Source of the DNA: Candidatus Omnitrophota bacterium
GTDB taxonomy: Bacteria; Omnitrophota; Gorgyraeia; Aquiviventales; Aquiviventaceae
DNA length: 64,000 bases
NCBI GenBank assembly: GCA_016206685.1
Contig: JACQRB010000014.1
Coordinates: 9,152-73,151 of the forward strand
Direction: 5' to 3'
A program made the position numbers and the translations under genes. Numbering within the stretch: position 1 is the stretch's first letter; every line of letters starts with the position of its first letter. Of the stretch, positions 9,874 to 41,456 are shown one piece after another. The notes beneath the pieces were generated by a model that was given only the letters and a program-made list of their open reading frames with translations, was not told where the DNA came from and ran no database searches.

Positions 9874-9943
9874 CATGCCAGGCGCTGTGTGTGAGCGTGA
9901 AACACCGTTACTCCGAACTCCGAACTCCGAACTCCGAACTCCA
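9834..9943. repeat. Heptamer tandem-repeat module (gtgcggN x4 ... actccga x5) at the ftsW/murG junction
   Basis: The left block gtgcggc gtgcgga gtgcggc gtgcgga lies at 9834-9861. After a 45-nt spacer, the right block actccga x4 plus actccac lies at 9909-9943. The arms are largely complementary. Confidence 0.85.
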
Positions 9944-28130: not shown

Positions 28131-29009
28131 ATGATCCCGTTGAGCGCGCCGGTCAAGAAATTCCTCCCCCTGATCTTTGCCGTGGTGATGGGGCTGCTGG
28201 CGGTCGGCTTGGTTCGTCGGTACCTCGGCCAGCAACGCCGGGCGTTGGAGCTTGAGCGTCAGCGGCTCATGGTGAATTACCAGGATCCGGTCGAGGTGGT
28301 GGTGGCGGCGAAGGACCTCCCTGCCGGGGTCACGTTGGAGCCGGCGCATTTGACGCTCGCCAAGGTCCCCGAGCGGTTCATGCAGCCCTATGCCACCCGC
28401 ATGCCGCAGCCACTGGTGGGCATGGTCACGGGCGCCCCCATCGCCGAAGGGGAGCAGGTCTTGCTCAACAAAATCCGCCGCCCGGAAGACGTTCCAACTA
28501 ATGCGACACTCTCCGATCTCACCCCCAAAGGCAAGCGGGCGGTCACCGTCTCGGTGGATATCATCACCGGCGTCGGCGGATTCATTCAGCCCGGCGATAC
28601 CGTGGACGTCCTCTGGACCTTAAAACTGCCCGCGGCAGGAGGGCAAGATGGCCAGGTGGTCACGTTGACCTTGTTCCAGGATGTCCCGATTCTCGCGGTG
28701 GCGCACGAGTTCCTGGGGCAGGGCAAGCGACCGGTGAAACCTGCTGAAGCGGAACACACGGTGACGCTCGCGTTGAGCCCGCAGGAAACCGCCTTTCTGC
28801 TCTTTGCGAGGGAGCAGGGACGGATTCAGCTCAGCCTGCGCTCCCAGTTGGATGGCGATGCGCAGGTGACCGTCGCCCCGGCGAGCATCAACACGCTGAT
28901 GGAGCAACTCCTGGGCAGTCAAGCCGGGGCGCCGACGAAAGCCCCTCGTCAGGTCGAAGTCTACAAGGGGCTCAAGCGGGACGTCGTGGTGCTCTCGGAA
29001 CAGCAATGA
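28131..29009 (+). CDS. cpaB: Flp pilus assembly protein CpaB/RcpC
   Basis: An N-terminal TM is followed by a SAF-like segment (VVVAAKDLPAGVTLEPAHLTL..VP) and an RcpC-like C-terminal domain. Confidence 0.8.
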   Translation: MIPLSAPVKKFLPLIFAVVMGLLAVGLVRRYLGQQRRALELERQRLMVNYQDPVEVVVAAKDLPAGVTLEPAHLTLAKVPERFMQPYATRMPQPLVGMVTGAPIAEGEQVLLNKIRRPEDVPTNATLSDLTPKGKRAVTVSVDIITGVGGFIQPGDTVDVLWTLKLPAAGGQDGQVVTLTLFQDVPILAVAHEFLGQGKRPVKPAEAEHTVTLALSPQETAFLLFAREQGRIQLSLRSQLDGDAQVTVAPASINTLMEQLLGSQAGAPTKAPRQVEVYKGLKRDVVVLSEQQ

Positions 29010-30634
29010 TGAGGAAGCGCTTCGCGCTGCTGGGGCTGATGCTTGCCGGGCTGTGGGTCGCCTCGGCGTGGGCGCAGCCGGTTTCCGCCGAGCGCGACGC
29101 CACGGCATCCTCGCCGGCCGCCAGCCAGGATCAGAGCGTCCCTGCCATCATCTTCCTTGAGCCCAGGCAAATCCGCAGCATGGCGGTGGAGGACGTCAAA
29201 CGGATTGCGGTGGGCGATCCGGACATCGTGGATGTGACGATCGTCTCCTCCAACGAAGTCCTCCTGCACGCCAAGGCGGCCGGCACGACGAACCTCATCC
29301 TGTGGGATCATCAGGGGCAGCGTGTCACCAACGTCGAGGTCGTGGACCGGCTGCCGGAAGCCCTTGAAGCCCAACTGCGCCAGCTCCTCACCCAGCTCAA
29401 CGTGCCGGGGGTGCAGGTGAAGCGGGAACACGGCAAGCTCTTTCTCATCGGGCAAGTCTTCAGGAAAGAGGAGTTCGAGCGTCTGGAGCAGATGCTCTCC
29501 GCCTATCCCGGCGTCACAAACCTGGCGCAAATCTCCGAGTCGGCCCCTGCGCCCTCGCTGCTGCCGCCGTTGGTGAAATTGTCGGTTCAAGTGATCGAGA
29601 TTAACCGCTCGGACCTGGAGCGGTTGGGCGTGCGCTGGTCGGAGTCCGTGGCATTCACCGAGCCGGAGGCGACCGACCGGACCGCGCACGACGCGCTCTT
29701 GCGGTGGGGCACCTCGCTCACGCGGGGCAGCACCTCCTGGACGCTGAACGCCCTGGTCAAACAGAACCGGGCGCGCATCCTTGCCGAACCGAAGCTCGTC
29801 ACCGCCAACGGCAAGCAAGCCTCCTCCTTCATCGGGGTGGAAGTGCCGGTGATCACGGCGACGACCTTCAGCACCACGACCTCGGCGGTCAGCACCAGCA
29901 TCGAGTTCCGCCAGACCGGGGTGTTGTTGAAGATGACGCCGAATATCCACACCAGCGACCATAAGATCACGACGGCCATCGAGGCCGAGGTCTCAAGCGT
30001 GGATAACTCGGTGGCGCTGAGCGTGCCGGTCGGCAACCAGACGGTGGCGGTGCCGGGCTTTTCGGTGCGCAAAGCGAATACGGAAGTGACCACCGCCTCA
30101 GGCGAGACCGTCATGATCGCCGGCTTGTTGCAGACCGAGGACACCAAGGATGTCAGCCAGGTGCCGGGCTTGGGCGGCATGCCGGTGGTGGGTCGTCTCT
30201 TCCGCTCACCGGAAACCGAGTCCACGCAGCGGGAACTGGTCATCGCGGTCACGCCGGAACTCCTCGGCGAGGAGGAGGTCAGTCCCGAGAAGGCGCTGAC
30301 GGTGGAGGAAGCGCTGTCGGTTGCGGAAAACGCCGCCTCGGCGGAGAACCCGCGGTTGCGCTACGTGCTGCAGGTCGAGGAGCGCATCGCCAAGTCCCTG
30401 CGGTATCCGACCCGCGAAAAGGACCTCAATGCGAGCGGGCAGGTGAAGCTGCGCGTCCACCTGTTGCGGGACGGCACCCTCAAGCAAGCGGTCATCTCCG
30501 AGTCCTCCGGGTTTGAGGCCTTTGACCAGGCTGCCCTCAACGCGGCACGGAGCCAATCCCCCTTCCCGCCGTTTCCCTCCGACCTGACCCAAGGGGAGCT
30601 GTGGCTTGAGCTGCCGGTCCTCTTTCGTCCCTAG
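29006..30634 (+). CDS. cpaC: Secretin (CpaC/RcpA-like) with a C-terminal TonB-C-like domain
   Basis: A signal peptide precedes the secretin core (ARILAEPKLVTANGKQASSFIGVEVP...VPGFSVRKANTEVTTASGETVMIAGLL...VPGLGGMPVVGRLFRS...ELVIAVTPELL). The last roughly 95 aa (YPTREKDLNASGQVKLRVHLLRDGTLKQAVISESSGFEAFDQAALNAAR..SPFPPFP) resemble TonB_C. Confidence 0.8.
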   Translation: MMRKRFALLGLMLAGLWVASAWAQPVSAERDATASSPAASQDQSVPAIIFLEPRQIRSMAVEDVKRIAVGDPDIVDVTIVSSNEVLLHAKAAGTTNLILWDHQGQRVTNVEVVDRLPEALEAQLRQLLTQLNVPGVQVKREHGKLFLIGQVFRKEEFERLEQMLSAYPGVTNLAQISESAPAPSLLPPLVKLSVQVIEINRSDLERLGVRWSESVAFTEPEATDRTAHDALLRWGTSLTRGSTSWTLNALVKQNRARILAEPKLVTANGKQASSFIGVEVPVITATTFSTTTSAVSTSIEFRQTGVLLKMTPNIHTSDHKITTAIEAEVSSVDNSVALSVPVGNQTVAVPGFSVRKANTEVTTASGETVMIAGLLQTEDTKDVSQVPGLGGMPVVGRLFRSPETESTQRELVIAVTPELLGEEEVSPEKALTVEEALSVAENAASAENPRLRYVLQVEERIAKSLRYPTREKDLNASGQVKLRVHLLRDGTLKQAVISESSGFEAFDQAALNAARSQSPFPPFPSDLTQGELWLELPVLFRP

Positions 30635-30723
30635 CCAGGCCTCCTCCGGTTTCTCCCCGGTCTTTATTGTTTTTTCAGCGATTTTGAGGCATACTTTGTC
30701 ATGATAACAGTTTTTTGAATCCG

Positions 30724-32754
30724 ATGCAGGTGAAACCACAGGTCATCTCGTGTTTCAGCACCAAAGGGGGGGTCGGCAAGACGCTCATCGTGACGAATCT
30801 TGCCACGACCCTGAGCCGCCATCAGTTCCGCAAGACGGCGCTCATCAGTCTCGCCCCGATCGAGCATGACGTCACCGCGATGCTCGATTCCTCGAACGTC
30901 CATCGGGTCACCGAGCTCCTCACGCCCGCCTCGTTGCCCGGCGTGCTGGCCACGCTGCGACAGGCCTACAGCTTCGTGGTGATTGACGCCGGCTCGGTGT
31001 TCAGCGAGCTGGCGCTGGCGGCGTTTGAGCACTCCAATCTCCTCCTCCTCGTCACCACGCCGGACGTGATTGCCATCCGCCATGCCGTCAAATCTGCGGA
31101 AGCCCTGGAAGCCATGCGGGTGCCGCTGCGCATGGTCAAAGCCGTGATCAACCGGGCGGAGAGCCGGGGGAACTTCCGCTCCGCCGAAGTCAGGGCGCAC
31201 CTGCCCATCGAGGTCGTCGCCGAGATCCCCTCGGAGGGGCGGTTGGTCGGGCTGTCCCTGAATCAGGGGCGCCCGCTCGTGCTGGCCAACGAGCGCGGGC
31301 GGATTACCGATGCGTTCCTGCGGTTTGGGCGGTTCCTCGTCGAGCACCCCGAGCTGTTTGTGGAGCACGTCGAGTTGGACCGCTCCAAGCGGCCCTCCAT
31401 GCCGATCCCTCAGCCGGTGTCGCTGGCCAGCCTGGCGCATCAAGCCGGGCTCCCCGACGCCCACGAGCCGGAGGACCCCGTCGTGGCGCTGAAGCGCCGG
31501 GTCCATGCCCGCTTGCTGGAAAAATTCGACTTGAAGCGGCTCGACACCCAAACCGCCAATAACCCCACGGTGGTGGGCCAACTGCGGGAACAGACGGGCA
31601 AGGCCGCCCTGGAGCTCCTCGTCGAAGAGGGAGGGTTCGTGCCGGGCGCGGATGCGCGGGAGCAGCTCGTCAAAGAAATCGTGGATGAGGCGCTGGGATT
31701 GGGGCCCCTGGAAGACCTGATCGCCGACGACGAGGTCTCCGACATCCTGGTCAACGGCAAGGACCAGATCTACATCGAGAAGCGCGGCAAGCTCCACCTG
31801 ACCGACAAGCGGTTCGTCTCCAACGACCAGGTGCTGACCGTCATCGAGCGCATCATCGCCCCCCTGGGGCGGCGCATTGACGAGTCCACCCCCATGGTGG
31901 ACGCCCGCTTGCCCGACGGGTCCCGTGTCAATGCGATTATTCAGCCGCTGTCTCTCCGCGGCCCGATGCTCTCCATCCGGAAGTTCCGGACCGAGCGCTT
32001 CTCCATGGAGGACCTCATCCGTCTGGGGACCCTCACCCCGGCGATGGCGCAGTTCCTCACCGTGTGCGTGAAAGCGCGCAAGAACATCATCGTGTCCGGC
32101 GGGACCGGCTCCGGCAAGACGACGACGTTGAATGTGCTCTCCGGCTGTATCCCGCCCGGTGAGCGCATCGTGACGATTGAGGACGCCGCGGAATTGCGCC
32201 TCCACCAGGAGCACTGGGTGCCGCTGGAAGCGCGTCCCCCGAACATCGAGGGCCGGGGGATGATCACGATCCGCCAGTTGTTCCGCAACGCCCTGCGCAT
32301 GCGCCCGGACCGCATCATCATCGGCGAGTGTCGTGGGGATGAGACGCTCGACATGCTCCAAGCCATGAATACGGGGCACGACGGCTCGCTCACGACGCTC
32401 CATGCCAACTCGCCGCAGGATGTCATCTCGCGGCTGGACTCCCTCATCCTGATGAGCAACGTGGAACTCCCCGTGAGGGCCGTGCGGGAGCAAATCGTCT
32501 CGGCGATCCACCTCATCGTGCACACCGCCCGCCTGTCGGACGGCTCCCGCAAGGTCACCCATATCACCGAGATCACGGGGATGGATGAGCATACCGGTGT
32601 GACGTTCGGGGATCTGTTCCTGTTCCACCAGCGCGGCGTCGGGGCTGGGAACGAGGTCCTTGGCGAGTTCAAGCCGGCGGGGCGGCTGCCCTCGTTCCTG
32701 GATGAGCTGCGGGCCAAGGGGCTTGCGCTGGATGAGGCGATGTTTCACCCGTAG
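30724..32754 (+). CDS. Fusion of a CpaE/TadZ-like ParA/MinD ATPase domain with a CpaF/TadA secretion ATPase (paralog 2)
   Basis: The N-terminus has a deviant Walker A (VISCFSTKGGVGKTLIVTNLA..VVIDAG). The C-terminal half is CpaF (VSDILVNGKDQIYIEKRG, SGGTGSGKTTTLNVL, RMRPDRIIIGECRGDETLDMLQAMNTGHDGSLTTLHANSP). The start is TTG 30715 or ATG 30724. Confidence 0.85.
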   Translation: MQVKPQVISCFSTKGGVGKTLIVTNLATTLSRHQFRKTALISLAPIEHDVTAMLDSSNVHRVTELLTPASLPGVLATLRQAYSFVVIDAGSVFSELALAAFEHSNLLLLVTTPDVIAIRHAVKSAEALEAMRVPLRMVKAVINRAESRGNFRSAEVRAHLPIEVVAEIPSEGRLVGLSLNQGRPLVLANERGRITDAFLRFGRFLVEHPELFVEHVELDRSKRPSMPIPQPVSLASLAHQAGLPDAHEPEDPVVALKRRVHARLLEKFDLKRLDTQTANNPTVVGQLREQTGKAALELLVEEGGFVPGADAREQLVKEIVDEALGLGPLEDLIADDEVSDILVNGKDQIYIEKRGKLHLTDKRFVSNDQVLTVIERIIAPLGRRIDESTPMVDARLPDGSRVNAIIQPLSLRGPMLSIRKFRTERFSMEDLIRLGTLTPAMAQFLTVCVKARKNIIVSGGTGSGKTTTLNVLSGCIPPGERIVTIEDAAELRLHQEHWVPLEARPPNIEGRGMITIRQLFRNALRMRPDRIIIGECRGDETLDMLQAMNTGHDGSLTTLHANSPQDVISRLDSLILMSNVELPVRAVREQIVSAIHLIVHTARLSDGSRKVTHITEITGMDEHTGVTFGDLFLFHQRGVGAGNEVLGEFKPAGRLPSFLDELRAKGLALDEAMFHP

Positions 32755-32755
32755 G

Positions 32756-33106
32756 ATGGCCGTGCTCATGAATGTGACGCGCCACCACGTCGTGGCGCAG
32801 CGCGCGCAGGCGGCCAGAGGGCTCCTGGCACGCATGGTCGGCTTGCTGGGTCGTGACGCCTTGCCGGCGGGGGAGGCGATGGTGTTTCCCTGGTGCAACT
32901 CCATCCATACCGTGGGGATGCGCTTTCCCATTGATGCGATCTTTGTTGATCAGCAGTGGCAGGTGGTGTCGTGGCGATCCGGCGTGCGTCCGTGGAGGGT
33001 GGTGTGGCCGGTGCGGGGAGCCTGGGGAGTGGTCGAGATGGCCCAGGGGACCCTGGATCGCCTGGGGCTGAAGGTCGGTGATCAGCTCCATCTAGCCGAG
33101 TCGTAA
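32756..33106 (+). CDS. DUF192 (COG1430) family protein
   Basis: About 116 aa containing GLLGRDALPAGEAMVFPWCNSIHTVGMRFPIDAIFVD and a final GVVEM..G block typical of DUF192. Confidence 0.7.
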   Translation: MAVLMNVTRHHVVAQRAQAARGLLARMVGLLGRDALPAGEAMVFPWCNSIHTVGMRFPIDAIFVDQQWQVVSWRSGVRPWRVVWPVRGAWGVVEMAQGTLDRLGLKVGDQLHLAES

Positions 33107-33156: not shown

Positions 33157-33186
33157 TTGACAAGCGCGCCCGGCGTTCACTATACT
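33157..33186 (+). promoter_or_regulatory. Consensus sigma70-type promoter of the pilin operon
   Basis: TTGACA (33157-62), an 18-nt spacer, then TATACT (33181-86). It lies in a 260-nt intergenic region directly upstream of the riboswitch. Confidence 0.6.
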
Positions 33187-33194
33187 TGTAAGTA

Positions 33195-33318
33195 CCGTGA
33201 GGCCGAGAAAGGCAAACTCGCCGAAAGGCGGGGTCGCAAAGCTTCGGGTCTTCACTCTCTGAACACACGCTGTGGGAGGCGTGTGGCGTTCTCGGGGAGC
33301 AGATAGCCGGGCTGCCGA
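33195..33318 (+). promoter_or_regulatory. c-di-GMP-I (GEMM-I) riboswitch aptamer
   Basis: AGGCAAACUCGCCGAAAGGCGGGGUCGCAAAGCUUCGGG aligns almost position-for-position with the Vibrio Vc2 aptamer core GGGCAAACCAUUCGAAAGAGUGGGACGCAAAGCCUCCGG (GNRA loop, GCAAAGC bulge). A second helix ends ...CGGGGAGCAGAUAGCCGGGCUGCC, compared with CCGGUAGGUAGCGGGGUUACC in Vc2. Confidence 0.78.
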
Positions 33319-33338
33319 ATAGGCGGACCGGTTTTTTA
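33307..33338 (+). terminator. Intrinsic terminator forming the riboswitch expression platform
   Basis: The stem ccgggctgcc / ggcggaccgg (one mismatch, one G-U) is followed by TTTTTT. Its 5' arm overlaps the 3' end of the aptamer. Confidence 0.65.
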
Positions 33339-33365
33339 TTTGGAGATAATCTAAAAAGATATAAA

Positions 33366-33566
33366 ATGGCTCTTCATATGATTGTATTAGTTATAGTAAA
33401 TGTCGTTAGGCGGAGCAGGACAAGCGGGCAAGCGATGATCGAGTACGCGATCCTCTTCGCGGTGATCGCGGTGCTCACCGTCATCGGCGTGACGACCTTC
33501 GATGACTCGGTCAAGACCGCCTTGCAAGGCTTCTTCAATGCGGCAGCCAACAAGATCGCCAAATAA
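33366..33566 (+). CDS. flp: Flp-family pilin (short, classical type), paralog 1
   Basis: Leader ...RRSRTSG then QAMIEYAILFAVIAVLTVIG. This is the G/xxxxEY prepilin motif with a hydrophobic helix and a short tail. The exact start is uncertain because the 5' region is AT-rich. Confidence 0.75.
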   Translation: MALHMIVLVIVNVVRRSRTSGQAMIEYAILFAVIAVLTVIGVTTFDDSVKTALQGFFNAAANKIAK

Positions 33567-33567
33567 A

Positions 33568-33635
33568 ATGCGGAATGCGGAATGCGGAATGCGGAATGTC
33601 AATCGCCACGCCGCACGCCGCACTCCGCACTCCGC
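33568..33635. repeat. Heptamer tandem-repeat hairpin module between pilin 1 and pilin 2
   Basis: atgcgga x4 (33568-33595), a 12-nt spacer, then acgccgc x2 plus actccgc x2 (33608-33635). Its first ATG is the in-frame candidate start of pilin 2. Confidence 0.9.
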
Positions 33636-33801
33636 ACTTGGAAAGGGACAGGCGGTGCTGGAATACGCCGTCCTGATTGGGATCGTCGCCGCGGCGCTCA
33701 TCGCCATGCAGCTCTACGTCCGGCGATCCATCCAGGCGAACCTCAAGGTGCTGGAAGACCAGGTGAACGCGGAAGCGGTGAAACCTGTACTCGTCCAGTA
33801 G
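33568..33801 (+). CDS. Flp-like pilin, MQxYxxR subfamily, paralog 2
   Basis: ...GKG then QAVLEYAVLIGIVAAALIAMQLYVRRSIQANLKVLEDQV. The leader peptide is encoded by the heptamer module, and the start could be 33568 or 33589. Confidence 0.7.
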   Translation: MRNAECGMRNVNRHAARRTPHSALGKGQAVLEYAVLIGIVAAALIAMQLYVRRSIQANLKVLEDQVNAEAVKPVLVQ

Positions 33802-33876
33802 ATTAGTACGCAGAACTAACCGCGGTCTTCGCAGTCGCTCTGCGGTTTCCGCGGTTGCAAAGGGAGGGGAGACAGC

Positions 33877-34092
33877 ATGAAGAAGAGGCGACTGGTTACT
33901 GGTTACTGGTCACTGGTCACTACCAGAGGGCAGAGCACGCTGGAATACATCCTGGTGCTGGCTGCCATTATTGCCGCAATCGCGATCGCGGCGGGCACGC
34001 TCATTAAACCGGCGGTGACCAAGACGATGAACGACACCAAAACGGTGATCGAGGACGCGACAGGGAAGCTCAAGGACGGGCTGAGCCTGTGA
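33877..34092 (+). CDS. Flp-family pilin (short type), paralog 3
   Basis: SD gggagggg precedes the start. The leader MKKRRLVTGYWSLVTTRG is followed by QSTLEYILVLAAIIAAIAIAAG. The leader contains a 4x heptamer tract (33892-33926). Confidence 0.8.
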   Translation: MKKRRLVTGYWSLVTTRGQSTLEYILVLAAIIAAIAIAAGTLIKPAVTKTMNDTKTVIEDATGKLKDGLSL

Positions 34093-34127
34093 AGGGCGCG
34101 AGCCCGACGGGAGGAGGTGAGCAGACG

Positions 34128-34490
34128 ATGACGCGCAGGGGCATGGGAGGACAGTCCACGGCGGAGTACGTCATCCTCATCAGCGTGGTGCTGGCGGCGA
34201 CGGTCGCCATGCAGATGTACGTCAAGCGCGGATTGCAGGGCAAGGTCAAGGACGTGACCGATAACGTGGGCTTTGGCCTGAAGGACGCCGGCTTCACGGC
34301 GCTGACCAACCAGTACGAGCCTTACTATGCGGTCTCGGACTTCAACGTCAGCCAGAAGCAGAGCACCAAGACCAGCGTGACGGACGGCTACAAGGTGAGC
34401 CGCGTGACCGATCTCGATGAGACGAAGCGGACCGGGGTGTCCAAGCAAGAGGTGGACCTCAGCAAAGACAATCAGTGGCTCGCGCAGTAA
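34128..34490 (+). CDS. Flp-like pilin with extended C-terminal domain, paralog 4
   Basis: SD GGAGGAGG precedes the start. MTRRGMGG is followed by QSTAEYVILISVVLAATVAMQMYVKRGLQGKVKDV and a tail of about 80 aa. Confidence 0.8.
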   Translation: MTRRGMGGQSTAEYVILISVVLAATVAMQMYVKRGLQGKVKDVTDNVGFGLKDAGFTALTNQYEPYYAVSDFNVSQKQSTKTSVTDGYKVSRVTDLDETKRTGVSKQEVDLSKDNQWLAQ

Positions 34491-34497
34491 CACGCAC

Positions 34498-34881
34498 ATG
34501 GCGAAGGGGGTGAAGGTGACAATGAGCAGGCTGACAGGGCGACGCGGGCCCCGTAGGACGTTTGTCCAACGGGGCGGGCAGAGCACGGTGGAGCTCGCCG
34601 TGCTGGTTGCCGTGATTACGGGGGCGCTCCTGGCGATGCAGATTTACGTCAAGCGCGGCGCGATGGGCAAGCTCCGGGACGCCGCGGACCAAGCCGGCGA
34701 GCAATTCACGCCGTTGAACACCACCTCCGAATTCACGGTCACCAGGAACAGCGCCAGGACGGAAAAGACCGAGGCGACCGGACTGACGACGGCGACCCTC
34801 ACGCAAGATGACCAAACCCGCACGGGAGCGGAACAGGTGACCACGCGGCTCGATGAGGAAAAGCTCTTCAAGCAACCATAA
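34498..34881 (+). CDS. Flp-like pilin with extended C-terminal domain, paralog 5
   Basis: ...FVQRGG is followed by QSTVELAVLVAVITGALLAMQIYVKRGAMGKLRDAADQAGEQF. The alternative start is ATG 34522. Confidence 0.8.
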   Translation: MAKGVKVTMSRLTGRRGPRRTFVQRGGQSTVELAVLVAVITGALLAMQIYVKRGAMGKLRDAADQAGEQFTPLNTTSEFTVTRNSARTEKTEATGLTTATLTQDDQTRTGAEQVTTRLDEEKLFKQP

Positions 34882-35299
34882 GCGCGTTGCCGCTTGCGCC
34901 GCGCAGTCCGTGACGGAATACGCCGTCCTGATCGGGCTGCTGACCGCCGCGGTGCTCGGGATGCAGCTCTACCTCAAGCGCGGCATCCAGGCCGGCGTCA
35001 AGGTGGCGGCGGACCAGATGAGCCCGCACGCCAACGACCCGACCGGAGAGAAGGCGCAGGTTGATGGCATGCGCTACGAGTCCGGCGAACGGAGCCAGGC
35101 CGTCGTCGCCACGGGCAGCGTCTTGGAGCGGAAGTCGGCGGCGCGGACGCTGCGCCAGCGGACCGCCAACATGACCGCCACCACAGGCGGCGGGGTGCAG
35201 CGGCAGATTGCCACGGATACCGCCGCCACGTCGGGCGTCCTGCCGGAAGGGGGAAGTGGGGTGGCGTCTCGCTCGGAGGTGGTGGTGGATGTGCGCTAA
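34853..35299 (+). CDS. Flp-like pilin with extended C-terminal domain, paralog 6
   Basis: ...ACAA is followed by QSVTEYAVLIGLLTAAVLGMQLYLKRGIQAGVKVAADQM. Ala replaces Gly at the -1 position. It overlaps the previous gene by 29 nt. Confidence 0.7.
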   Translation: MRKSSSSNHKRVAACAAQSVTEYAVLIGLLTAAVLGMQLYLKRGIQAGVKVAADQMSPHANDPTGEKAQVDGMRYESGERSQAVVATGSVLERKSAARTLRQRTANMTATTGGGVQRQIATDTAATSGVLPEGGSGVASRSEVVVDVR

Positions 35300-35636
35300 G
35301 CGCGGGCAAAGTCTGGTGGAATACGCCGTCTCCCTGGCGGTCATCATCGCCGCGCTCCTCGCCGTCCAGATCTACCTCAAACGGGGCGTGGCGGGCAAGC
35401 TGCGCACCGCCGCGGATTCCATCGGGGAGCAGTACGCCCCCCGGCAGACCACCTCCAGCCTCATCTTCCAGACCCACAGCGACACCGTCACCGAGTCCAA
35501 GCTGGAAAAGGACAAACTCATCGGGGGCGGCAAGAAGGCGGATGTCATGGTCACCACCACGACGATCAACGATGAGACGACGCAACGCACCGGCACGGAA
35601 ACCGTGGACTCCCTCGGCACCGACCTCTGGGACTAA
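35289..35636 (+). CDS. Flp-like pilin with extended C-terminal domain, paralog 7
   Basis: SD ggaggtgg precedes the start. MCAKRG is followed by QSLVEYAVSLAVIIAALLAVQIYLKRGVAGKLRTAADSIGEQY. Confidence 0.8.
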   Translation: MCAKRGQSLVEYAVSLAVIIAALLAVQIYLKRGVAGKLRTAADSIGEQYAPRQTTSSLIFQTHSDTVTESKLEKDKLIGGGKKADVMVTTTTINDETTQRTGTETVDSLGTDLWD

Positions 35637-35637
35637 C

Positions 35638-36660
35638 ATGACCAGCGACCAGCGACCAAATCACTTGGTCTCATGTCTCATGTCTCATGTCTCATGTCTT
35701 CGTGCCAACAAGGGTCAAGCCCTCCTTGAACTCGCCATCTTCGGCTCGCTCTTCATCCTGGTCCTCGGCGTGCTCCTGAACTATGGGCTCAACGCCGACT
35801 ACAGCCAGCGCGCCAAGATGGAAGCCTTTCGGCAAGCCCTCGCCCTGTCATCCGATTCGAACATCACCGGAGGCGGCTCGTACGCCCTGGCGAAAGATCG
35901 CTACATCCCCAACCCCTCCAACCCCTTCGCCCTCGGCTCGGACATTCCGGTGTCTGAGTCAGGCAGCGTCATTCGTGATTTCCGGTTGGACGAAACCGCG
36001 GATACGGTCAGTGAGCTGCCGCGCGTCAACATCACGGTGAACGGAGAGCCGTTTGATTGCCCCAGCGCGGGCACCGGCTGCACGACAGCCGGCTTTCGCA
36101 CCGAGCCGCTGACCGGCTCCCTGGACCGCTACCAGGAGGTCTACGGCAGCTCCAACGTCAACGGCGGCGGCGACACCGTCACGGTCATTGATTCCTGCGA
36201 GGGCGAGGTCGTCAGCTTTGAGAGCTGCGTGCGCCAGGCGCGGATGATCGTGGATTCCGACGCCTGCACCGCCGAGTGCAAGCGGGGGAAGTTCGAGGGC
36301 AGCGACGACTGCGCCTCGACCTGTGCTGCGCCCATGACCGTGCCGTGGTACGCCCAGGGCGCCGTCAAAGATACAAGCGGCAAATGGACGTTTCCGAACT
36401 TGAATACGCTCTTTACCGGCATCACGACGACGGGACTGCAGCGCGGCTCGAGCCGCCACACCACGATGGCAAGCACCTTGCACAAGCAGGAAACCGCCTC
36501 AGCCGTCAGCACCACCGACTCGGTCAACTGGCGCGATGACGTCACCCGCAAAGTCGTGTATAAACCACTTGGCGACACAAGCGGAACCCCCGTGACGCAG
36601 TCGGTCACCACCACGCCTAAAGATGAGCAGAACAGCACGACCTGGACAACCCCCTGGTAA
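35638..36660 (+). CDS. TadE-like pseudopilin with Cys-rich C-terminal domain
   Basis: ...RANKG is followed by QALLELAIFGSLFILVLGVLLNYGLNADYSQRAKMEAFRQA, a TadE/G-like N-terminus. The 5' end is built from two heptamer tracts (35640-35702). The C-terminal half has at least 8 Cys. Confidence 0.7.
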   Translation: MTSDQRPNHLVSCLMSHVSCLRANKGQALLELAIFGSLFILVLGVLLNYGLNADYSQRAKMEAFRQALALSSDSNITGGGSYALAKDRYIPNPSNPFALGSDIPVSESGSVIRDFRLDETADTVSELPRVNITVNGEPFDCPSAGTGCTTAGFRTEPLTGSLDRYQEVYGSSNVNGGGDTVTVIDSCEGEVVSFESCVRQARMIVDSDACTAECKRGKFEGSDDCASTCAAPMTVPWYAQGAVKDTSGKWTFPNLNTLFTGITTTGLQRGSSRHTTMASTLHKQETASAVSTTDSVNWRDDVTRKVVYKPLGDTSGTPVTQSVTTTPKDEQNSTTWTTPW

Positions 36661-36664
36661 CCCA

Positions 36665-36925
36665 ATGCGGAACTTAGCTCGGACACTCCGCACTCCACAC
36701 TCCGCACTCCGCATGCGGAGGGGTCAAGCATCGCTGGAAATGACCGTCGCGCTCATCGGGGCGCTTCTTTTGTTGTTCGGTAGCTTAAAAGTTTTCTTAT
36801 GGATCAATGAACGGCTGGTGAAGCGACAGGTCAGCTATGAAGACACGCGGGTAGCCGCTGGGAGTCAGGATTCCCTGAAGCTGTGGGAGGAACCCACGGA
36901 GCCGCTCAAGATCTTCAATGAGTGA
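36665..36925 (+). CDS. Small TadE-like pseudopilin
   Basis: ...MRRG is followed by QASLEMTVALIGALLLLFGSLKVFLWINERL. The leader is encoded by the heptamer module at 36665-36719. The start is 36665 or 36713. Confidence 0.65.
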   Translation: MRNLARTLRTPHSALRMRRGQASLEMTVALIGALLLLFGSLKVFLWINERLVKRQVSYEDTRVAAGSQDSLKLWEEPTEPLKIFNE

Positions 36926-36931
36926 CGCAAC

Positions 36932-39040
36932 ATGATCCGTCTTCTCAGGAAGCTGCTTTCTGTTGCGAATCTGAGGCGCAAGCGGGCGCAGGCGCGAGGA
37001 CAGATTGCGACCGTCCTCCTGCTGGCGATCGTCGCGGTGTTGCTCTTCACCCTCATGACTGCCAACCTCGGGCAGGTGTCGCTCGTCGCCACCAACGCCG
37101 CCAACGCCTCCGACTCCGCCAGCCTCTATCTTGCCAGCCAGCTCTCGACCAAGTCCCACCAGTTGTGGGAATCGCTGGGGCATAAGACCCAGAAGTGCCA
37201 GAAGAAAGGCTTCTTCGGATCGCTCTTTGCCATCATCTTTGCCATCGTCATGATCGTCCTTCAGCAGTATGAGTTCCTCCCGGTAGCGTTCGCCCCTACC
37301 ACTACAGGTGCTATTGCCGCAGCGTTTGGCTCTACCACAGCTCCAATAGTCGCTGCGGGTGCCATAGGAGGTTTCGTCGGTGGCGCAATTGGAGGTGCCG
37401 TCACCGGCACCAATCCGTTGATCGGCGCCTTGCAAGGCGCCTTGATTGGCGCCTCGATTGGCTTTGGGGTAGGCTCAGCGCAGAACCTTGCTGCCAGTTT
37501 TGCGAGTTCCGCAGGAACGAAAGCAGGGGCTGCCGCTGCGGCCGTCGGAACAGGGAGCGAGTTTGAGATCGCGTTGGCCTTCGCGAAGGAGTTTAACGCA
37601 TTCATGGCCTCCTACGCTGCACCCTTTGCCATCGGTGGTGGCGCCTTCTCTGCCGGCACGAGCCTCTTCAACTCGGTCATGTCGGATCTGGCGAAGTCGG
37701 ATGCCATCGCGGCGGCTGCCAAAGCCTTGAGCGGGCTGCCGGAGACATTGCGCATCCAGCAGGGCGTCATCTTCCGCGCGCTGTCCGAGACCGTGGATGA
37801 CCCGACGAAAGTCCAGGATGTCCATGACGCGGATGGCGACGGTGACACCCAGGAGCAGATTCCCCGATTCCTCTCATGGTGGGATCAACGGGTGAAAGCC
37901 TTAAAAGACAACATCCCCACGATGGCGGACACCGTCAGCCAGTTTGTCAACGGTCCGATGACGACCTTTCACGACGCCGCGGAGGCGACCTATAAGAAAC
38001 CTCCTGATCCAGGCATGTTCGCCAGGCAGGAGGTGGAGGGCAGCGGGATGGAGGGCAGCGACGGAGAGCTGGTGGACCTGGCGCGCCGTCTTGAAAATGC
38101 CGGCCACCCGATCTCCTTCTGGGCGCCCGGACCGACCGCGGCGCAGATTGACGACTCCGAGTGCGAGGAATCCGCCTGCGACGCAGCCCCCCTGCCCCCC
38201 GGCTGGGATGAGGTGGACGAGACCATCGAGCGCCTCCAACAGCTTGCAGGGACCGGCGGAGCAACCGACGAAGACAAAGGCATGATTGACAACCTCAAAG
38301 ATCAGACCGTCACCCACAACACCGCGACCTGGGAGTCCTGGTCCAAGCTGTTCTATGACCCCGATCCCCAGGAGACCGATGACTTCTATGACGAAGCTGC
38401 TGTGCTAGTCAACGGCGGCGTCTTCGAAGGGGAGTCGTTCAAGGGGATCAAAGCGTGGAAGGAGGAGCTGCAGAGCGTGAAGGTGTCGCTGCCCCAATGC
38501 CAGCCCCAGTACGACGAGGAGGACGACCAGCTCATCGGCGTGTCCAACCCGCCCTGCCAGGATCTCGCGGGGAGCCTCCTGGGTGAGCCCTTTGCGACGT
38601 CCGACGCGGATTTCGCCGACGAGTTCGTCCCTGTGGAAACCAAGCTGAATCAACTGGTTTCGGACATCGAGAGCTTCCGCCCGGCGTCCAAAGATTTCGT
38701 GACCACCATGACAACGCTCTCCGAGGGGATCACGACGGACTTCGGTGGCAAGAACCCCGCCGGCTACGCGTGGAGCGATTCGCGCGGGGACCTGTCGGTT
38801 GAGGTCGAGGTGGGACCCTTCAAGGTCGCCCGGACGAAGAAGAAATCCAGCTTCAAGAAAATCTGCATCGTCCTGAAAGACTACGCCGACGACGGCTCGC
38901 GAAGCTGGGTGAAGATCACCCGGCAGGACCCGGTGCGGGATGCGGGGTTCTGGCGCTGGAACGACTACGGCGGCAAGACGGCCAAGCTCTCGCGCTCGGC
39001 GTACAGTTTTAACTTCGTGAAGATTGCCGGGACGCAGTGA
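36932..39040 (+). CDS. TadG-like large pseudopilin / pilus-associated protein (702 aa)
   Basis: The N-terminus RGQIATVLLLAIVAVLLFTLMTANLGQVSLVATNAANASDSASL resembles the TadG N-terminal (Tad_N) motif. A Gly/Ala-rich hydrophobic block and then an acidic globular region follow. Confidence 0.65.
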   Translation: MIRLLRKLLSVANLRRKRAQARGQIATVLLLAIVAVLLFTLMTANLGQVSLVATNAANASDSASLYLASQLSTKSHQLWESLGHKTQKCQKKGFFGSLFAIIFAIVMIVLQQYEFLPVAFAPTTTGAIAAAFGSTTAPIVAAGAIGGFVGGAIGGAVTGTNPLIGALQGALIGASIGFGVGSAQNLAASFASSAGTKAGAAAAAVGTGSEFEIALAFAKEFNAFMASYAAPFAIGGGAFSAGTSLFNSVMSDLAKSDAIAAAAKALSGLPETLRIQQGVIFRALSETVDDPTKVQDVHDADGDGDTQEQIPRFLSWWDQRVKALKDNIPTMADTVSQFVNGPMTTFHDAAEATYKKPPDPGMFARQEVEGSGMEGSDGELVDLARRLENAGHPISFWAPGPTAAQIDDSECEESACDAAPLPPGWDEVDETIERLQQLAGTGGATDEDKGMIDNLKDQTVTHNTATWESWSKLFYDPDPQETDDFYDEAAVLVNGGVFEGESFKGIKAWKEELQSVKVSLPQCQPQYDEEDDQLIGVSNPPCQDLAGSLLGEPFATSDADFADEFVPVETKLNQLVSDIESFRPASKDFVTTMTTLSEGITTDFGGKNPAGYAWSDSRGDLSVEVEVGPFKVARTKKKSSFKKICIVLKDYADDGSRSWVKITRQDPVRDAGFWRWNDYGGKTAKLSRSAYSFNFVKIAGTQ

Positions 39041-39042
39041 CC

Positions 39043-39483
39043 ATGCGCATAGATTCGCCTGAGCTCAAGTATATCGCAGTGACGCTGCTCGTCGTGGTCG
39101 CGCTGATTGGCGCGCTGCGCCTGACCAGGAGCGACGTCGCCCGCTGCCGGGAGGTCTTCCAGGACTTGGCGCGGGGAAAGCGCTCGGTGCAGCAGCGCAT
39201 TGACTGGGGGCAGCTCCACGCCATAGGGGTCAACGTGGGCGCCACCTATGCGGGTCTGCCGGATGAAGGGGCGAGGGTGACCTATCGGCGGCTCTTCGTC
39301 GAGCATTTCTCCAAGGGATTCCTGCAGACGGGGGCGAGGCTCGATGAGTTTGTGCGCTGGCGCGTCCACGAGCGGACACCCGAGCAGGTGGTGGTCGCGG
39401 CGGACTATCCGGCGAAGCAGAAGACGCTGCTGCTGACGATGGCTGTTTCAGGGAAGAAGCTCGAGGGCATCCAATGGCAATGA
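39043..39483 (+). CDS. Hypothetical single-TM protein in the pilus operon
   Basis: ORF with N-terminal TM (YIAVTLLVVVALIGAL), tightly packed between the TadG-like gene and a pilin gene. I recognise no family. Confidence 0.5.
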   Translation: MRIDSPELKYIAVTLLVVVALIGALRLTRSDVARCREVFQDLARGKRSVQQRIDWGQLHAIGVNVGATYAGLPDEGARVTYRRLFVEHFSKGFLQTGARLDEFVRWRVHERTPEQVVVAADYPAKQKTLLLTMAVSGKKLEGIQWQ

Positions 39484-39662
39484 CCCAGCGGGGGGGTCAA
39501 ACGGCAGTGGAATACGCCGTCTTGATCGTGGTCGTCGTGGCGGCGCTGCTGGCGATGGCGGTGTACGCCAAGCGCGCGCTGACGGGGAAATGGCGCGAGG
39601 TCGGCGACACCTTCGGCTACGGCCGCCAGTATGAACCGGGTGCAACAGCAGTGAGTCAGTGA
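39474..39662 (+). CDS. Flp-like pilin, paralog 8
   Basis: MAMTQRGG is followed by QTAVEYAVLIVVVVAALLAMAVYAKRALTGKWREVGDTFGYGRQY. Confidence 0.8.
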   Translation: MAMTQRGGQTAVEYAVLIVVVVAALLAMAVYAKRALTGKWREVGDTFGYGRQYEPGATAVSQ

Positions 39663-40543
39663 TGATAAACCTGATGCTCGAGTGGCTGATCTATCTCTTG
39701 GCGATGGGGGCGGTCATCTGCGCCGCGTTCATCGCGTATCCGCTCATCATGCGCGCCCTGACCCGTTCCGCCAGCCGGATTGAGCAGTTCCAGCAGGGCA
39801 AGGTGGAGCAAGCCACCAAGGCGCTGGATGACATCTTTGTCGAGGTCAAGCCCCGGTGGCTGGCGCTCGCCTACGGCGTGGGACCCGTGACGGCGGGACT
39901 GCTGGTGTTTGTCCTGACGGACAACATGCTCTTTGCGCTGCTCGGGGCGGTGGTCGGCGTGATTCTTCCGGACGTCTGGGTCAGGCAGACGCGCGCGATC
40001 CGCAAGCGCACCTTCCGCGCGCAGCTCGTGGATGCGCTCTTCATCCTCTCCAGCAGCCTGCGGGCCGGGCTCTCCCTGACGCAGGCGTTTGAGCAGTTGG
40101 AATCGGAGATGAGCCCGCCGGCATCGCAGGAGTTCGGCCTGATGATGAAAGCCCACCGGCTCGGGCGCACGCTGGACGAATCGCTCCAGCGGTTGAACCA
40201 GCGCATCCCCTGTGAGGAGCTGGAGCTGATGACGACCGCGCTGCTCGTCGCGCGGGAAACCGGCGGCGATGTCACCGGCATCATCGGCCAGCTCATCGCC
40301 ACCATCCGGGAGCGCAAGAAGCTCAGCGAGAAGGTGGTCACCCTGACCCTGCAGGGACGGCTGCAGGCCTACATCATGAGCTCGGTGCCGCTGGCGTTCT
40401 TTTTCTTCGTGCGCGCCTTCAACCCGCGGTACTTCGAGCTGCTCCTTGTCAGCGAGACTGGCAAGACCATCCTGGCAACGGCAATCGGGTTGTGGCTGGT
40501 GGGGATCTTCCTCCTGTTCCGGTTCAGCCGAGCGGAGGTCTGA
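39659..40543 (+). CDS. tadB: TadB-type inner-membrane platform protein (T2SSF domain)
   Basis: TM segments flank a cytoplasmic T2SSF-like domain (FRAQLVDALFILSSSLRAGLSLTQAFEQL...). Confidence 0.8.
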   Translation: MMINLMLEWLIYLLAMGAVICAAFIAYPLIMRALTRSASRIEQFQQGKVEQATKALDDIFVEVKPRWLALAYGVGPVTAGLLVFVLTDNMLFALLGAVVGVILPDVWVRQTRAIRKRTFRAQLVDALFILSSSLRAGLSLTQAFEQLESEMSPPASQEFGLMMKAHRLGRTLDESLQRLNQRIPCEELELMTTALLVARETGGDVTGIIGQLIATIRERKKLSEKVVTLTLQGRLQAYIMSSVPLAFFFFVRAFNPRYFELLLVSETGKTILATAIGLWLVGIFLLFRFSRAEV

Positions 40544-41441: not shown

Positions 41442-41456
41442 GGGTGTTGGTGAGCG

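Follow-up and report, generated by a model that had tools for sequence, protein, structure and literature searches.

Pilins of the Flp/Fap family (PF04964), such as Caulobacter PilA and Aggregatibacter Flp1, have a leader that ends in Gly, a Glu at +5, a Tyr at +6 and a hydrophobic N-terminal helix, and their genes lie inside a tad locus with those for TadA/B/C, RcpC and a secretin. Known Flps are 50–80 aa long and entirely helical (PMC12075869, PMC11067988). The Kil predatory Tad pilus of Myxococcus xanthus contains the major Flp KilP, the adapter Flps KilK and KilO and tip trimers of KilL/M/N (Herrou et al. 2025, PMC12075869); according to that study, genes for such a tip are essentially restricted to Myxococcales. 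TadE/TadF proteins (PF07811), also encoded in tad loci, are larger than Flp and combine a prepilin signal with a beta-rich C-terminal part. Archaeal class III pilins (PF04021) carry a G/A↓Q-x-x-x-E signal (the arrow marks cleavage). The Omnitrophota are widespread, ultra-small, probably predatory or parasitic bacteria of which there is no isolate, and Ca. Velamenicoccus archaeovorus LiM is the sole predator of the phylum grown in enrichment culture. Judging by the accessible portions of the two reports, the Omnitrophota "T2SS-like" locus (West-Roberts et al. 2023, bioRxiv 10.1101/2023.11.21.568195) and the Velamenicoccia Tad complex (Seymour et al. 2023, PMC10066038) are the same locus as the one analyzed here; those portions leave its pilin families, motif, C/D pairing, predicted fold and riboswitch undefined. 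For the prey-contact apparatus of Omnitrophota, the leading candidates are the Tad locus and the giant gene adjoining it, and what the locus polymerizes appears to be a large pilin family, unnamed in curated databases, with an added predicted beta-hairpin domain.

The window is the whole 64,000-nt stretch that was analyzed of a contig from the metagenome-assembled genome (MAG) of an uncultured Omnitrophota bacterium. A Pfam scan revealed a complete Tad/Cpa locus surrounding the pilin array, which lies between the following machinery genes.

25699..26997, + strand: extra T2SSE-family ATPase, 5′ of the locus (Pfam T2SSE, 172 bits)
27002..28003, + strand: PpiC-type peptidyl-prolyl isomerase (Pfam Rotamase_2)
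28131..29009, + strand: RcpC/CpaB (Pfam RcpC, 93.9 bits; SAF)
29006..30634, + strand: CpaC/RcpA-type secretin with a fused C-terminal TonB_C (Pfam Secretin, T2SS-T3SS_pil_N, TonB_C)
30715..32754, + strand: fusion of a TadZ-like (ParA/CbiA) protein and a TadA/CpaF ATPase (Pfam CbiA/ParA at residues 9–173, T2SSE at 327–606)
32768..33106, + strand: DUF192 protein (Pfam DUF192, 69.6 bits), conserved in position; the ORF is open from 32660 and its start is probably 3′ of the TadA stop
39659..40543, + strand: TadB-like platform protein (Pfam T2SSF)
40548..41441, + strand: TadC-like platform protein (Pfam T2SSF), in an ORF open from 40446
41454..64000, + strand: 5′ part of a giant ORF with an N-terminal Peptidase_C39 and no in-frame stop for 22.5 kb (>7,500 codons)

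The Omnitrophota locus consistently opens with the gene for the PpiC-type isomerase, which occupies the same place in three related loci (L001, L004 and L088). The giant ORF lies directly downstream of the array locus; its frame stays open to the window end, its true start is somewhere 3′ of 41454, and giant ORFs of up to 27,940 aa are recorded at the same position in relatives. No prepilin peptidase (Peptidase_A24) was found among the 42 window ORFs scanned against Pfam, and prepilin processing is therefore assumed.

All eight pilin genes of the original prediction were recovered on the + strand at the coordinates it gave, with the GC3 bias (0.75–0.88) that genuine genes of the genome show. 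Translation most likely begins at 33568 (P2), 34128 (P4), 34522 (P5), 34853 (P6) and 35289 (P7). The array and the ORFs interspersed with it are as follows.

33366..33566, + strand: P1, short Flp-like, putatively all-helical prepilin lacking the motif, mature 45 aa, SG↓QAMIEY; first gene 3′ of the riboswitch, unannotated in GenBank, with matches only in Logan
33568..33801, + strand: P2, short motif-type prepilin, mature 50 aa, AMQLYVRR; orthologues of ~45–55 aa lie near the start of most arrays
33877..34092, + strand: P3, short Flp-like prepilin lacking the motif, mature 53 aa, RG↓QSTLEY; named "class III signal peptide-containing protein" by NCBI
34128..34490, + strand: P4 (P0001, HY596_01170), C-type extended pilin, mature 112 aa, AMQMYVKRG...NQYEPYY...RTG; LiM orthologue QAT16251
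34522..34881, + strand: P5 (P0002, HY596_01175), D-type extended pilin, mature 100 aa, AMQIYVKRG..GK...AADQAGEQF...RTG...LF; LiM orthologue QAT16252
34853..35299, + strand: P6 (P0013), divergent extended pilin, mature 131 aa, GMQLYLKRG, Ala at −1; the GenBank start is an internal GTG with which the prepilin signal is lost, and its orthologue P0108 combines a normal G↓Q with a similar MR[KR]xSS leader
35289..35636, + strand: P7 (P0006, HY596_01185), second D-type extended pilin, mature 109 aa, AVQIYLKRG..GK...AADSIGEQY...RTG...DLWD; orthologues P0054, P0099 and P0118
35638..36660, + strand: large TadE/F-like minor pilin candidate, KG↓QALLELAIF, mature ~314 aa; orthologues of 190–450 aa lie 3′ of the extended pilins in most loci
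36623..36925, + strand: small minor pilin candidate, RG↓QASLEMTV, mature ~66 aa; LiM orthologue L016:10789-11115
36932..39040, + strand: TadG-like large pilin-like protein (Pfam Tad PF13400, 21.1 bits against a cutoff of 22.3); the L004 gene at this position has a recorded PF13400 hit
39037..39483, + strand: 148-aa protein with no Pfam hit; same-position ORFs have 148 aa (L087) and 143 aa (L089)
39474..39662, + strand: P11, short motif-type prepilin, mature 54 aa, AMAVYAKRA...RQYEP

In a six-frame regular-expression scan, the window proved to contain ten signals of prepilin type, with G/A↓Q-x3-E-[YLM] and then a hydrophobic helix. They are confined to the + strand, within 33426–39495, and correspond to the eight reported genes and the larger pilin-like ORFs at 35638–36660 (KG↓QALLEL) and 36623–36925 (RG↓QASLEM). 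The eight genes all have [GA]↓Q-x3-E-[YL] and then at least 12 hydrophobic residues, and residue +1 is always Gln. The stricter G↓Q..EY signature claimed for them holds in most, with two exceptions: 34522–34881 has E-L and 34853–35299 has Ala at −1. The whole window has exactly six instances of the basic motif [AG][MV][QA]xYx[KR]R (at 33703, 34206, 34633, 34958, 35361 and 39552), in 6/6 cases at mature residues 19–26, compared with a chance expectation of 0.06 per window (mean of 50 codon-shuffled windows). Prepilin signal and motif are thus at fixed positions and far above chance. The six genes proposed to share a longer post-helix motif do share this basic part, but only those at 34522 and 35289 carry the full extension GK....AD..GEQ(F/Y); a related NQYEPYY is present in the 34128 gene, and RQYEP in the 39474 gene.

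No Pfam or NCBIfam model reached its cutoff on the six motif proteins, and the best E value among 120 homologues was ~1e-3; the motif family is unnamed, as the original prediction had suspected. Flp_Fap (PF04964, cutoff 32.2 bits) scored 27.7 on P1, 22.9 on P11 and 13.3 on P2 without a hit on P3–P7, and gave 16 weak hits in the 120 family members (best E 9e-4). Class_IIIsignal (PF04021, cutoff 23.7 bits) scored 19.1 on P3, 12.6 on P2 and 12.2 on P11, with weak hits in 35/120 (best E 8e-4). Among the window pilins TadE (PF07811, cutoff 22.9 bits) matched only P11, at 16.3 bits, and 6/120 family members weakly (best E 5e-3). No T2SS pseudopilin or type IVa pilin Pfam model was among the matches, and the NCBIfam matches were all far below cutoff: PRK10574, a prepilin peptidase-dependent pilin model, on P1 (14.8 bits versus 138) and T2SS XpsH on 5/120 (best E 1e-3). 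P1 and P3, which had been called classical Flp pilins, are short and Flp-like, but both lie below the respective Pfam cutoffs. By size P1, P2, P3 and P11 (prepilins of 62–77 aa) fall within the 50–80 aa Flp range and P4–P7 (115–148 aa) outside it. The genes are located in a tad/cpa locus with TadA, TadB/C, RcpC/CpaB and a secretin, here and in relatives, which bears out their identification as Tad/Flp-like prepilins. A reading in which the motif proteins are no filament subunits, and are instead small membrane-anchored periplasmic or "gas vesicle" proteins sharing a hydrophobic N-terminus only, could draw on the missing curated match and on the IMG label "gas vesicle protein" of some C-type members. 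It is highly improbable, given that the G↓Q-x3-E-Y signal stands at a fixed position in all members, that the sub-threshold hits (Flp_Fap, Class_IIIsignal, TadE, DUF4244) all fall on the N-terminal helix, that no gas vesicle genes are nearby, and that in the loci inspected the family sits inside Tad loci, between short pilins and TadE/G-like genes.

In family members a short basic leader ending in Gly is followed by Q1, E5 and Y6 and an 18-residue hydrophobic helix, which continues into the conserved M-Q-x-Y-x-K-R-G at mature residues 20–27. Members of ~100 residues add a Q-[YF]-x-P loop and a ~40-residue Thr/Ser-rich predicted beta-hairpin, in which a Gly turn is invariant and an R-[TS]-G element occurs; an acidic/aromatic C-terminus is present in most members of the D type and in some of the C type. 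AF2 placed the helix of P4 at 9–52 and the hairpin at 68–107, and gave the same helix-then-hairpin topology for P5 at low confidence (pLDDT 68 and 59 for the two models, pTM 0.27–0.29, pLDDT <50 in the D-type hairpin); no structural neighbor was found. The tails, described at first as divergent, turned out to be a conserved domain within each orthologous type: 120 homologues show little or no variation in Q-[YF]-x-P, the Gly turn and R-[TS]-G.

These features set the family apart from the known systems. Unlike Flp/Fap pilins, the window pilins score below cutoff and have Gln at +1 as in archaeal class III signals, and P4–P7 have mature lengths of 100–131 aa, a conserved MQxYxKRG and a predicted beta-hairpin domain, so that the all-helical character of Flps is not predicted for P4 and P5. 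With TadE/TadF the contrast is that the C/D C-terminal element is much smaller, a single hairpin, that PF07811 is absent or far below cutoff, and that TadE/F-like candidates are already encoded separately in the window locus. Some family members bear the automatic UniProt and NCBI label "class III signal peptide-containing protein", but the family is bacterial, belongs to a Tad locus with a secretin, and has only the signal, not the mature domain, in common with the archaeal pilins. The Kil system, a conceptual precedent, likewise is a predator's Tad machine with one locus-associated set of short Flps and TadE/F/G-like proteins, and the size pattern of KilL/M/N (large, small, very large) suits the ORFs at 35638, 36623 and 36932; however, Kil has no counterpart of the C/D extended pilins. 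The known range of Tad pilins would thereby extend past the helix-only Flp, and the C/D family is a target for a Pfam/NCBIfam model, proteome re-search, AlphaFold3 filament modeling and cryo-ET.

A profile built from the six motif proteins, as had been proposed, uncovered a large family: the exhaustive search returned 2,144 clusters (50% identity) at E≤1e-10 and 5,063 cluster representatives at E≤1e-3. A word-index search gave at least 556 family matches, and those that carry a name are without exception "hypothetical" proteins of Omnitrophota. Relatives are encoded at 173 genome loci, the best 80 of which are mostly titled Omnitrophota and include LiM. Family hits and loci that carry names are mostly from Omnitrophota, and the remainder have the same locus architecture. 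The six motif proteins belong to an un-named extended Flp-like pilin family that is apparently restricted to the phylum. An ordered gene set is common to 83 loci with a median of 9 prepilin-like genes; what was taken originally for an expanded array is the Omnitrophota norm, 8–11 pilin-like genes. The array is not a local expansion because each paralogue has same-order orthologues in genomes of 41%–64% GC. P4 scored 198–218 against its cross-genome counterparts and at most 140 against any window paralogue; the top scores of P5 and of P7 are similar whether the match lies in another genome or in the window. Two adjacent genes for pilins of ~100 residues are a near-universal feature; one is of the C type, with QYEP (P4 in the window), and the other of the D type, with GEQ[YF] (P5 and P7 in the window). 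The C type is present in 80/83 loci, a C gene precedes the D gene in 61/79 cases, and some loci carry C-D-C-D or C-D-C-D-C-D. From this gene adjacency we propose that the C and D types may act as a pair.

Absence of expression or peptides had been named as grounds for abandoning the original prediction; in LiM the orthologues reach 216–1,484 TPM and two were detected as protein (PMC12583861). The D-type QAT16252, at 1,484 TPM, tops ~120 listed genes, and the C-type QAT16251 has 637 TPM and riBAQ values of 1906/469/1641 ppm, seventh of ~120 (PMC12583861 supplement). QAT16253 was also detected as protein, while QAT16252 was undetected in the LiM proteome despite its top transcript level. The LiM array genes are all transcribed together at 54–1,484 TPM, and the assembly genes just upstream at 21–27 TPM (same supplement). 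Within the LiM locus no genes are transcribed more strongly than these orthologues, and the proteome contains abundant C-type protein. Because mass spectrometry detects short Flps poorly, P1 or P3 might yet be the major shaft pilin.

The following regulatory elements were identified around P1.

33157..33186, + strand: putative sigma-70-like promoter TTGACA-18-TATACT (11/12 matches; by consensus match only)
33202..33320, + strand: c-di-GMP-I-GGC riboswitch aptamer (RF03167; 69.3 bits against a gathering score of 59, E=2.5e-14; full-length, model positions 1–80 of 80)
33300..33342, + strand: terminator-type hairpin with U-run, a terminator-like site (−21 kcal/mol, z=−4.0)
33567..33638, + strand: imperfect hairpin of the heptamers AATGCGG x4.6 and CACTCCG x4.6 (TRF; −44.5 kcal/mol, z=−5.1)

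The 5′ arm of the terminator is the 3′ strand of the aptamer, which identifies the hairpin as the expression platform. Most likely the riboswitch acts as an ON switch, a direction suggested by this arrangement; we know of no established ligand for the c-di-GMP-I-GGC variant. Aptamers of the c-di-GMP class are located directly 5′ of the first pilin gene in four other loci.

We consider it probable that the eight ORFs and the three larger downstream pilin-like ORFs are the subunit module of an Omnitrophota Tad-type (type IVc) filament machine. Prepilins would insert in the inner membrane and be cut after Gly(−1) by a prepilin peptidase encoded elsewhere, and the TadZ–TadA fusion together with TadB/TadC would polymerize them through RcpC and the secretin, with the N-terminal helices forming the filament core and the hairpins its surface. 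The C (P4) and D (P5, P7) pilins would be abundant structural subunits, probably major or co-major shaft pilins, the short Flp-like proteins adapters or additional shaft subunits, and the TadE/F/G-like ORFs the tip. The array would be driven by its own promoter under control of the c-di-GMP-class riboswitch. A heteropolymeric fiber, as first suggested, is plausible and fits the C-D pairing; the accompanying idea that some subunits serve as alternative tips or adhesins suits the three larger TadE/F/G-like ORFs downstream better than the six motif proteins. A bolder version, which we rate as rather unlikely, makes the C and D pilins partners in a pair of major subunits; the Omnitrophota filament would then be the first Tad-class pilus to have a beta-hairpin-coated heteropolymer as its shaft in place of a helix-only Flp polymer, turned on by a cyclic-dinucleotide riboswitch and working with the giant protein in prey attachment or killing.

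The pilin-like proteins might instead build a short periplasmic T2SS-like pseudopilus that exports or presents the giant protein or other effectors, the paralogues being akin to GspG–K. This would agree with the giant ORF directly 3′ of TadC, here and in relatives, and the same riboswitch class precedes the giant ORF in L001, L004 and L018, which suggests co-regulation. We regard it as unlikely: all parts of the machine are of Tad type (RcpC/CpaB, T2SS-T3SS_pil_N secretin, TadZ–TadA, two TadB/C-like proteins), and the signals are of Flp/class III type (Q1, E5, Y6) with no significant Pfam/NCBIfam match, whereas T2SS pseudopilins carry an N-methylation motif (G↓[FM]-x3-E). The accessible portion of West-Roberts et al. 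(bioRxiv 10.1101/2023.11.21.568195) presents the locus as a T2SS-like system for secretion that is conserved 5′ of giant genes, but the many transmembrane segments it describes in the giant proteins sit poorly with secretin passage. The high abundance of the C type in LiM cells also argues for the Tad-type filament over a pseudopilus.

Where P2, P3 and the two ORFs at 35638 and 36623 encode their leaders, there are arrays of 7-nt repeats with ~4.5 copies each; the heptamer hairpin begins 1 nt past the P1 stop and includes the P2 start codons. A unit of 7 would shift the frame, and together with the several paralogues bearing different tails this could point to alternative major pilins used one at a time (antigenic/phase variation or prey-specific adhesion) with the heptamers as slipped-strand on/off switches. 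Such a role is very unlikely, since each paralogue type has a same-position counterpart across the phylum, the LiM array genes are transcribed together, and copy numbers are identical in two independent metagenome assemblies. The heptamer arrays also occur at unrelated genes (e.g., ftsW/murG and a pseudouridine synthase), indicating a dispersed element rather than a pilin switch. As a separate observation, which tells against C and D as the major shaft pilins, a promoter and riboswitch before P1 and a strong hairpin after it are the classic layout of a major-pilin gene.

The region from 33.1 to 41.5 kb is coding throughout on the + strand, with the composition of a high-GC genome (GC 0.61-0.65, ORF GC3 0.75-0.89). 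A six-frame scan of the window for a prepilin pattern ([GA]|Q-x3-E-[YLFM] and then 12 or more hydrophobic residues) returned ten signals, all lying on the + strand within 33426-39495. They belong to the eight genes of the original prediction (P1-P7 and P11) and to two bigger pilin-like ORFs, 35638-36660 and 36623-36925.

Pilin and pilin-like genes
33366-33566 (+), P1
33568-33801 (+), P2, motif-bearing
33877-34092 (+), P3
34128-34490 (+), P4, motif-bearing
34522-34881 (+), P5, motif-bearing
34853-35299 (+), P6, motif-bearing
35289-35636 (+), P7, motif-bearing
35638-36660, 36623-36925 and 36932-39040 (+), larger TadE/F/G-like pilin candidates
39474-39662 (+), P11, motif-bearing

The basic motif [AG][MV][QA]xYx[KR]R occurs six times in the 64 kb, each time spanning residues 19-26 of a mature prepilin, against a mean of 0.06 in 50 codon-shuffled windows. 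Nucleotide identity among the six genes is 60-74% across 70-100 nt around the motif segment. The scan and the shuffles confirm the predicted array and its six-fold motif with small corrections. The prepilin signature ascribed to all eight genes reads E-L in P5 and has Ala at -1 in P6; the extended motif GK....AD..GEQ[FY], ascribed to all six paralogues, is complete in P5 and P7 only; and the two supposedly classical Flp pilins score under Pfam cutoffs. No cysteine occurs in the mature window pilins. P6 is mis-started in GenBank at an internal GTG, so that its signal peptide is lost. P1, the first pilin gene past the riboswitch, is missing from the GenBank annotation of the MAG, and its exact sequence was found solely in one Logan assembly.

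A search with a profile of the six paralogues, as originally proposed, recovered a large homologue family. It retrieved the window proteins themselves ('hypothetical protein HY596_01170...01185, Candidatus Omnitrophica bacterium', on a 76.6 kb contig) and, at E<=1e-3, at least 556 homologues. Among the 120 of these that were listed, none carries a Pfam domain, and the named ones are 'hypothetical'. With a profile of 120 sequences, an exhaustive HMMER search matched 5,063 representatives of 50%-identity clusters at E<=1e-3, of which 2,144 reached E<=1e-10. Scanning one genome per GTDB species yielded 173 loci, of which 80 were kept, among them that of Ca. Velamenicoccus archaeovorus (LiM). About two-thirds of the kept loci have Omnitrophota or Omnitrophica titles and the remainder are mostly MAGs titled Planctomycetia or Planctomycetales; since the locus architecture is identical throughout, the latter titles are probably wrong. 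The extended pilin family is apparently specific to Omnitrophota.

The family consensus reads R-x-G|QSTAEYAIVI-VVIAA-VAMQ-YVKRGLQGKVKDATD ... QYEPYY ... GG-V-RT ... RTG. Invariant or nearly so are G-1, Q1, E5, Y6, M20, Q21, Y23, K25, R26 and G27 in the N-terminal half and one Q, one P, one Gly and R-x-G in the tail. The extended pilins include a C type (QYEP[YF][YF], mature ~105 aa; P4 in the window) and a D type (G[EQ]Q[YF]-x-P with a C-terminal [DE]-x-L-[FW], mature ~96 aa; P5 and P7). P6, also long but divergent, has orthologues of its own (for example the homologous protein P0108), and P2 and P11 are short forms consisting of helix and motif only. AlphaFold2, run with the family alignment, predicted for P4 a ~44-residue helix followed by a long beta-hairpin (mean pLDDT 68; 77-80 in the hairpin blocks) and, at low confidence, the same topology for the D type. 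Foldseek against the PDB found no structural relative of the P4 model below E=0.5, and a profile search of PDB sequences gave a chance match alone (E=7.9). The invariant tail residues and the predicted hairpin show that the tails, originally described as divergent, form a small conserved domain and do not vary freely.

Searching all 120 members against Pfam and NCBIfam brought up weak matches alone (DUF4244, Class_IIIsignal, DUF3290, Flp_Fap and TadE), confined to the N-terminal helix. The window pilins fall outside PF04964, PF07811 and PF04021 by score; P4-P7 do so by size as well, and P4 and P5, the two modelled, also by predicted fold. Despite this, the extended family most likely works by a Tad pilin mechanism. 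Members are named 'hypothetical' by NCBI and 'class III signal peptide-containing protein' by UniProt; IMG calls the D type 'Flp pilus assembly pilin Flp' and the C type 'gas vesicle protein', an erroneous name ruled out by the signal and the genomic context. The extended Flp-like pilins are a real, conserved family without an entry in the curated libraries, as expected if the motif belongs to no described Flp family. Seymour et al. 2023 (PMC10066038) described the Tad complex of Omnitrophota, and the available portions of that paper and of West-Roberts et al. 2023 (10.1101/2023.11.21.568195) contain no definition of the pilin families of the locus.

When 83 loci were sorted by a single simple set of sequence patterns, a common order emerged: a short Flp, a short motif type (~45-55 aa), a second short Flp (~50 aa), the C type, the D type, further long forms, a TadE/F-like ORF of 190-450 aa and an ORF of 70-80 aa. 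Per-locus medians are nine prepilin-like ORFs and four motif-bearing ones. The C type is present in 80 of the 83 loci, its gene precedes the D gene in 61 of 79 cases, and several loci are arranged C-D-C-D or C-D-C-D-C-D, which suggests from gene order that C and D may function as a pair. For P4, the counterparts in LiM and in a genome of 41% GC give better alignments than any of its paralogues within the same genome; P5 and P7 score about equally well against their best match in another genome and their best match in the window. What had been taken for an expanded array is thus a set conserved in order, which argues for distinct, non-redundant subunits and against recent expansion or interchangeable antigenic variants.

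Pfam annotation places the array within a complete Tad/Cpa locus, downstream of a dcw cell-division cluster. The order is PpiC rotamase, RcpC/CpaB, a CpaC-type secretin fused to TonB_C, a TadZ-like/TadA fusion, DUF192, the pilin array, three pilin-like ORFs (large, small and very large, the last matching Tad PF13400 weakly), a 148-aa ORF of no assigned family, the eighth pilin (P11), TadB and TadC. A Pfam scan of 42 window ORFs turned up no prepilin peptidase. Two fusions in the machinery are unusual and are kept in the related loci L001, L004 and L088.

29006-30634 (+), secretin with C-terminal TonB_C
30715-32754 (+), TadZ-like ParA/CbiA domain joined to TadA ATPase

Just past TadC, a frame without a stop codon runs for 22.5 kb to the window end (41454-64000, +). 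This length, together with a Peptidase_C39 domain near its start (about residues 243-330), identifies it as the 5' part of an Omnitrophota giant gene.

The major pilin is usually taken to be the most highly expressed one, and short hydrophobic Flps are poor mass-spectrometry targets. We drew expression values for LiM from the supplement of a 2025 re-analysis (PMC12583861), mapping accessions to ORFs by three exact matches and gene order.

Expression of the LiM pilin array (PMC12583861); riBAQ in ppm for 10kS cells / 100S aggregates / 100S cells
QAT16252, D type: TPM 1,484, top of ~120 genes in that table part; riBAQ not detected
QAT16251, C type: TPM 637; riBAQ 1906 / 469 / 1641, seventh of ~120
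QAT16253, long form: TPM 595; riBAQ 53 / 15 / 64
QAT16254, second D type: TPM 216; riBAQ not detected
Five short pilins: TPM 54-554; riBAQ not detected
Two genes immediately upstream of the array: TPM 21-27; riBAQ about 0-13

A lack of expression or peptide evidence would have counted against these genes; in LiM the extended Flp-like pilins are transcribed, and two members are seen as protein. By the usual criterion, their high expression makes C and D the best candidates for major subunits, with the cautions that no D product was detected as protein and that short Flps are easily missed by this method. The TadG-like QAT16257 and the product of the next gene, QAT16258, reach riBAQ values of ~1,700 and ~3,100 ppm (PMC12583861), an abundance indicating that tip and accessory proteins are made in quantity.

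By analogy, the Myxococcus Kil pilus is the best candidate functional counterpart. Its major Flp, KilP, is all-helical, its adapter Flps (KilK/O) are weakly transcribed, and its tip consists of TadE/F/G-like trimers, KilL/M/N (PMC12075869). The window ORFs at 35638, 36623 and 36932 match the tip pattern; the short Flps are compatible with roles in the shaft or as adapters. A heteropolymeric C/D shaft coated with hairpins and acting jointly with the giant protein is a tentative and rather unlikely reading.

Control elements lie between DUF192 and P1.

33157-33186, sigma-70-like promoter, 11/12 positions matching
33202-33320 (+), full-length c-di-GMP-I-GGC aptamer (RF03167), 69.3 bits (gathering score 59)
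33300-33342, hairpin followed by a U-run, -21 kcal/mol, z=-4

The 3' strand of the aptamer doubles as the 5' arm of the hairpin, so a ligand-stabilised aptamer should block termination, and we infer that the array riboswitch is an ON switch. Literature searches on the GGC variant yielded no ligand information, and we know of no established ligand for it. Related loci carry canonical c-di-GMP-I aptamers ~60-90 nt ahead of the codon for the cleavage site in the first pilin gene (L010:6856-6993, L024:6893-7021, L029:6824-6962, L048:6625-6747) or GGC variants before the giant ORF (L001:18548-18639, L004:18959-19058, L018:16386-16480); the recurring aptamers of this locus type are RF03167 or RF01051. 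No riboswitch was found before the giant ORF of the window at relaxed thresholds. The closest relatives (L087-L089) and LiM gave no riboswitch hit reaching the gathering score. The further aptamers indicate that control of the pilin and giant-gene module by cyclic dinucleotides recurs in the phylum, in agreement with the PilZ and GGDEF links described by West-Roberts et al. 2023. The accessible parts of the Omnitrophota papers do not mention c-di-GMP-class riboswitches at the locus.

Tandem heptanucleotide arrays occur at 33567-33638, 33891-33921, 35640-35699, 36684-36713, 41874-41905, 42124-42159, 9833-9942 and 23925-23995, with analogous arrays in L087, L088 and L089. Most hold 4.0-4.9 copies (28-34 nt) and three are shorter (2.4-2.7 copies); the unit is constant in length and varies in sequence by site and species. 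Partly complementary arrays are often paired into long imperfect hairpins (33555-33650, -44.5 kcal/mol). Most are located at the ends of genes or within segments coding for leaders, and they account for why P2, P3 and the ORFs at 35638 and 36623 have oddly long leaders; one pair (23925-23995) lies within a pseudouridine synthase ORF. Phase variation through these repeats was rejected, since copy numbers are equal in two independent assemblies, and is also countered by such arrays at unrelated genes. They look like a dispersed repeat element.

Some relatives encode a small four-helix-bundle protein (23S_rRNA_IVP) in or beside the Tad locus (L087:4565-4972, L088:10643-11050, L004:18169-18519 (-)), with a weak bAvd match in L087 and L088. 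Such a protein could hint at a diversity-generating retroelement; none was found among the window ORFs examined. Isoleucyl-tRNA synthetase appears to be split into two ORFs ~100 nt apart (19000-19644 and 19751-21919, +; tRNA-synt_1 positions 1-156 and 184-414), which could reflect a frameshift, an assembly error or an insertion.
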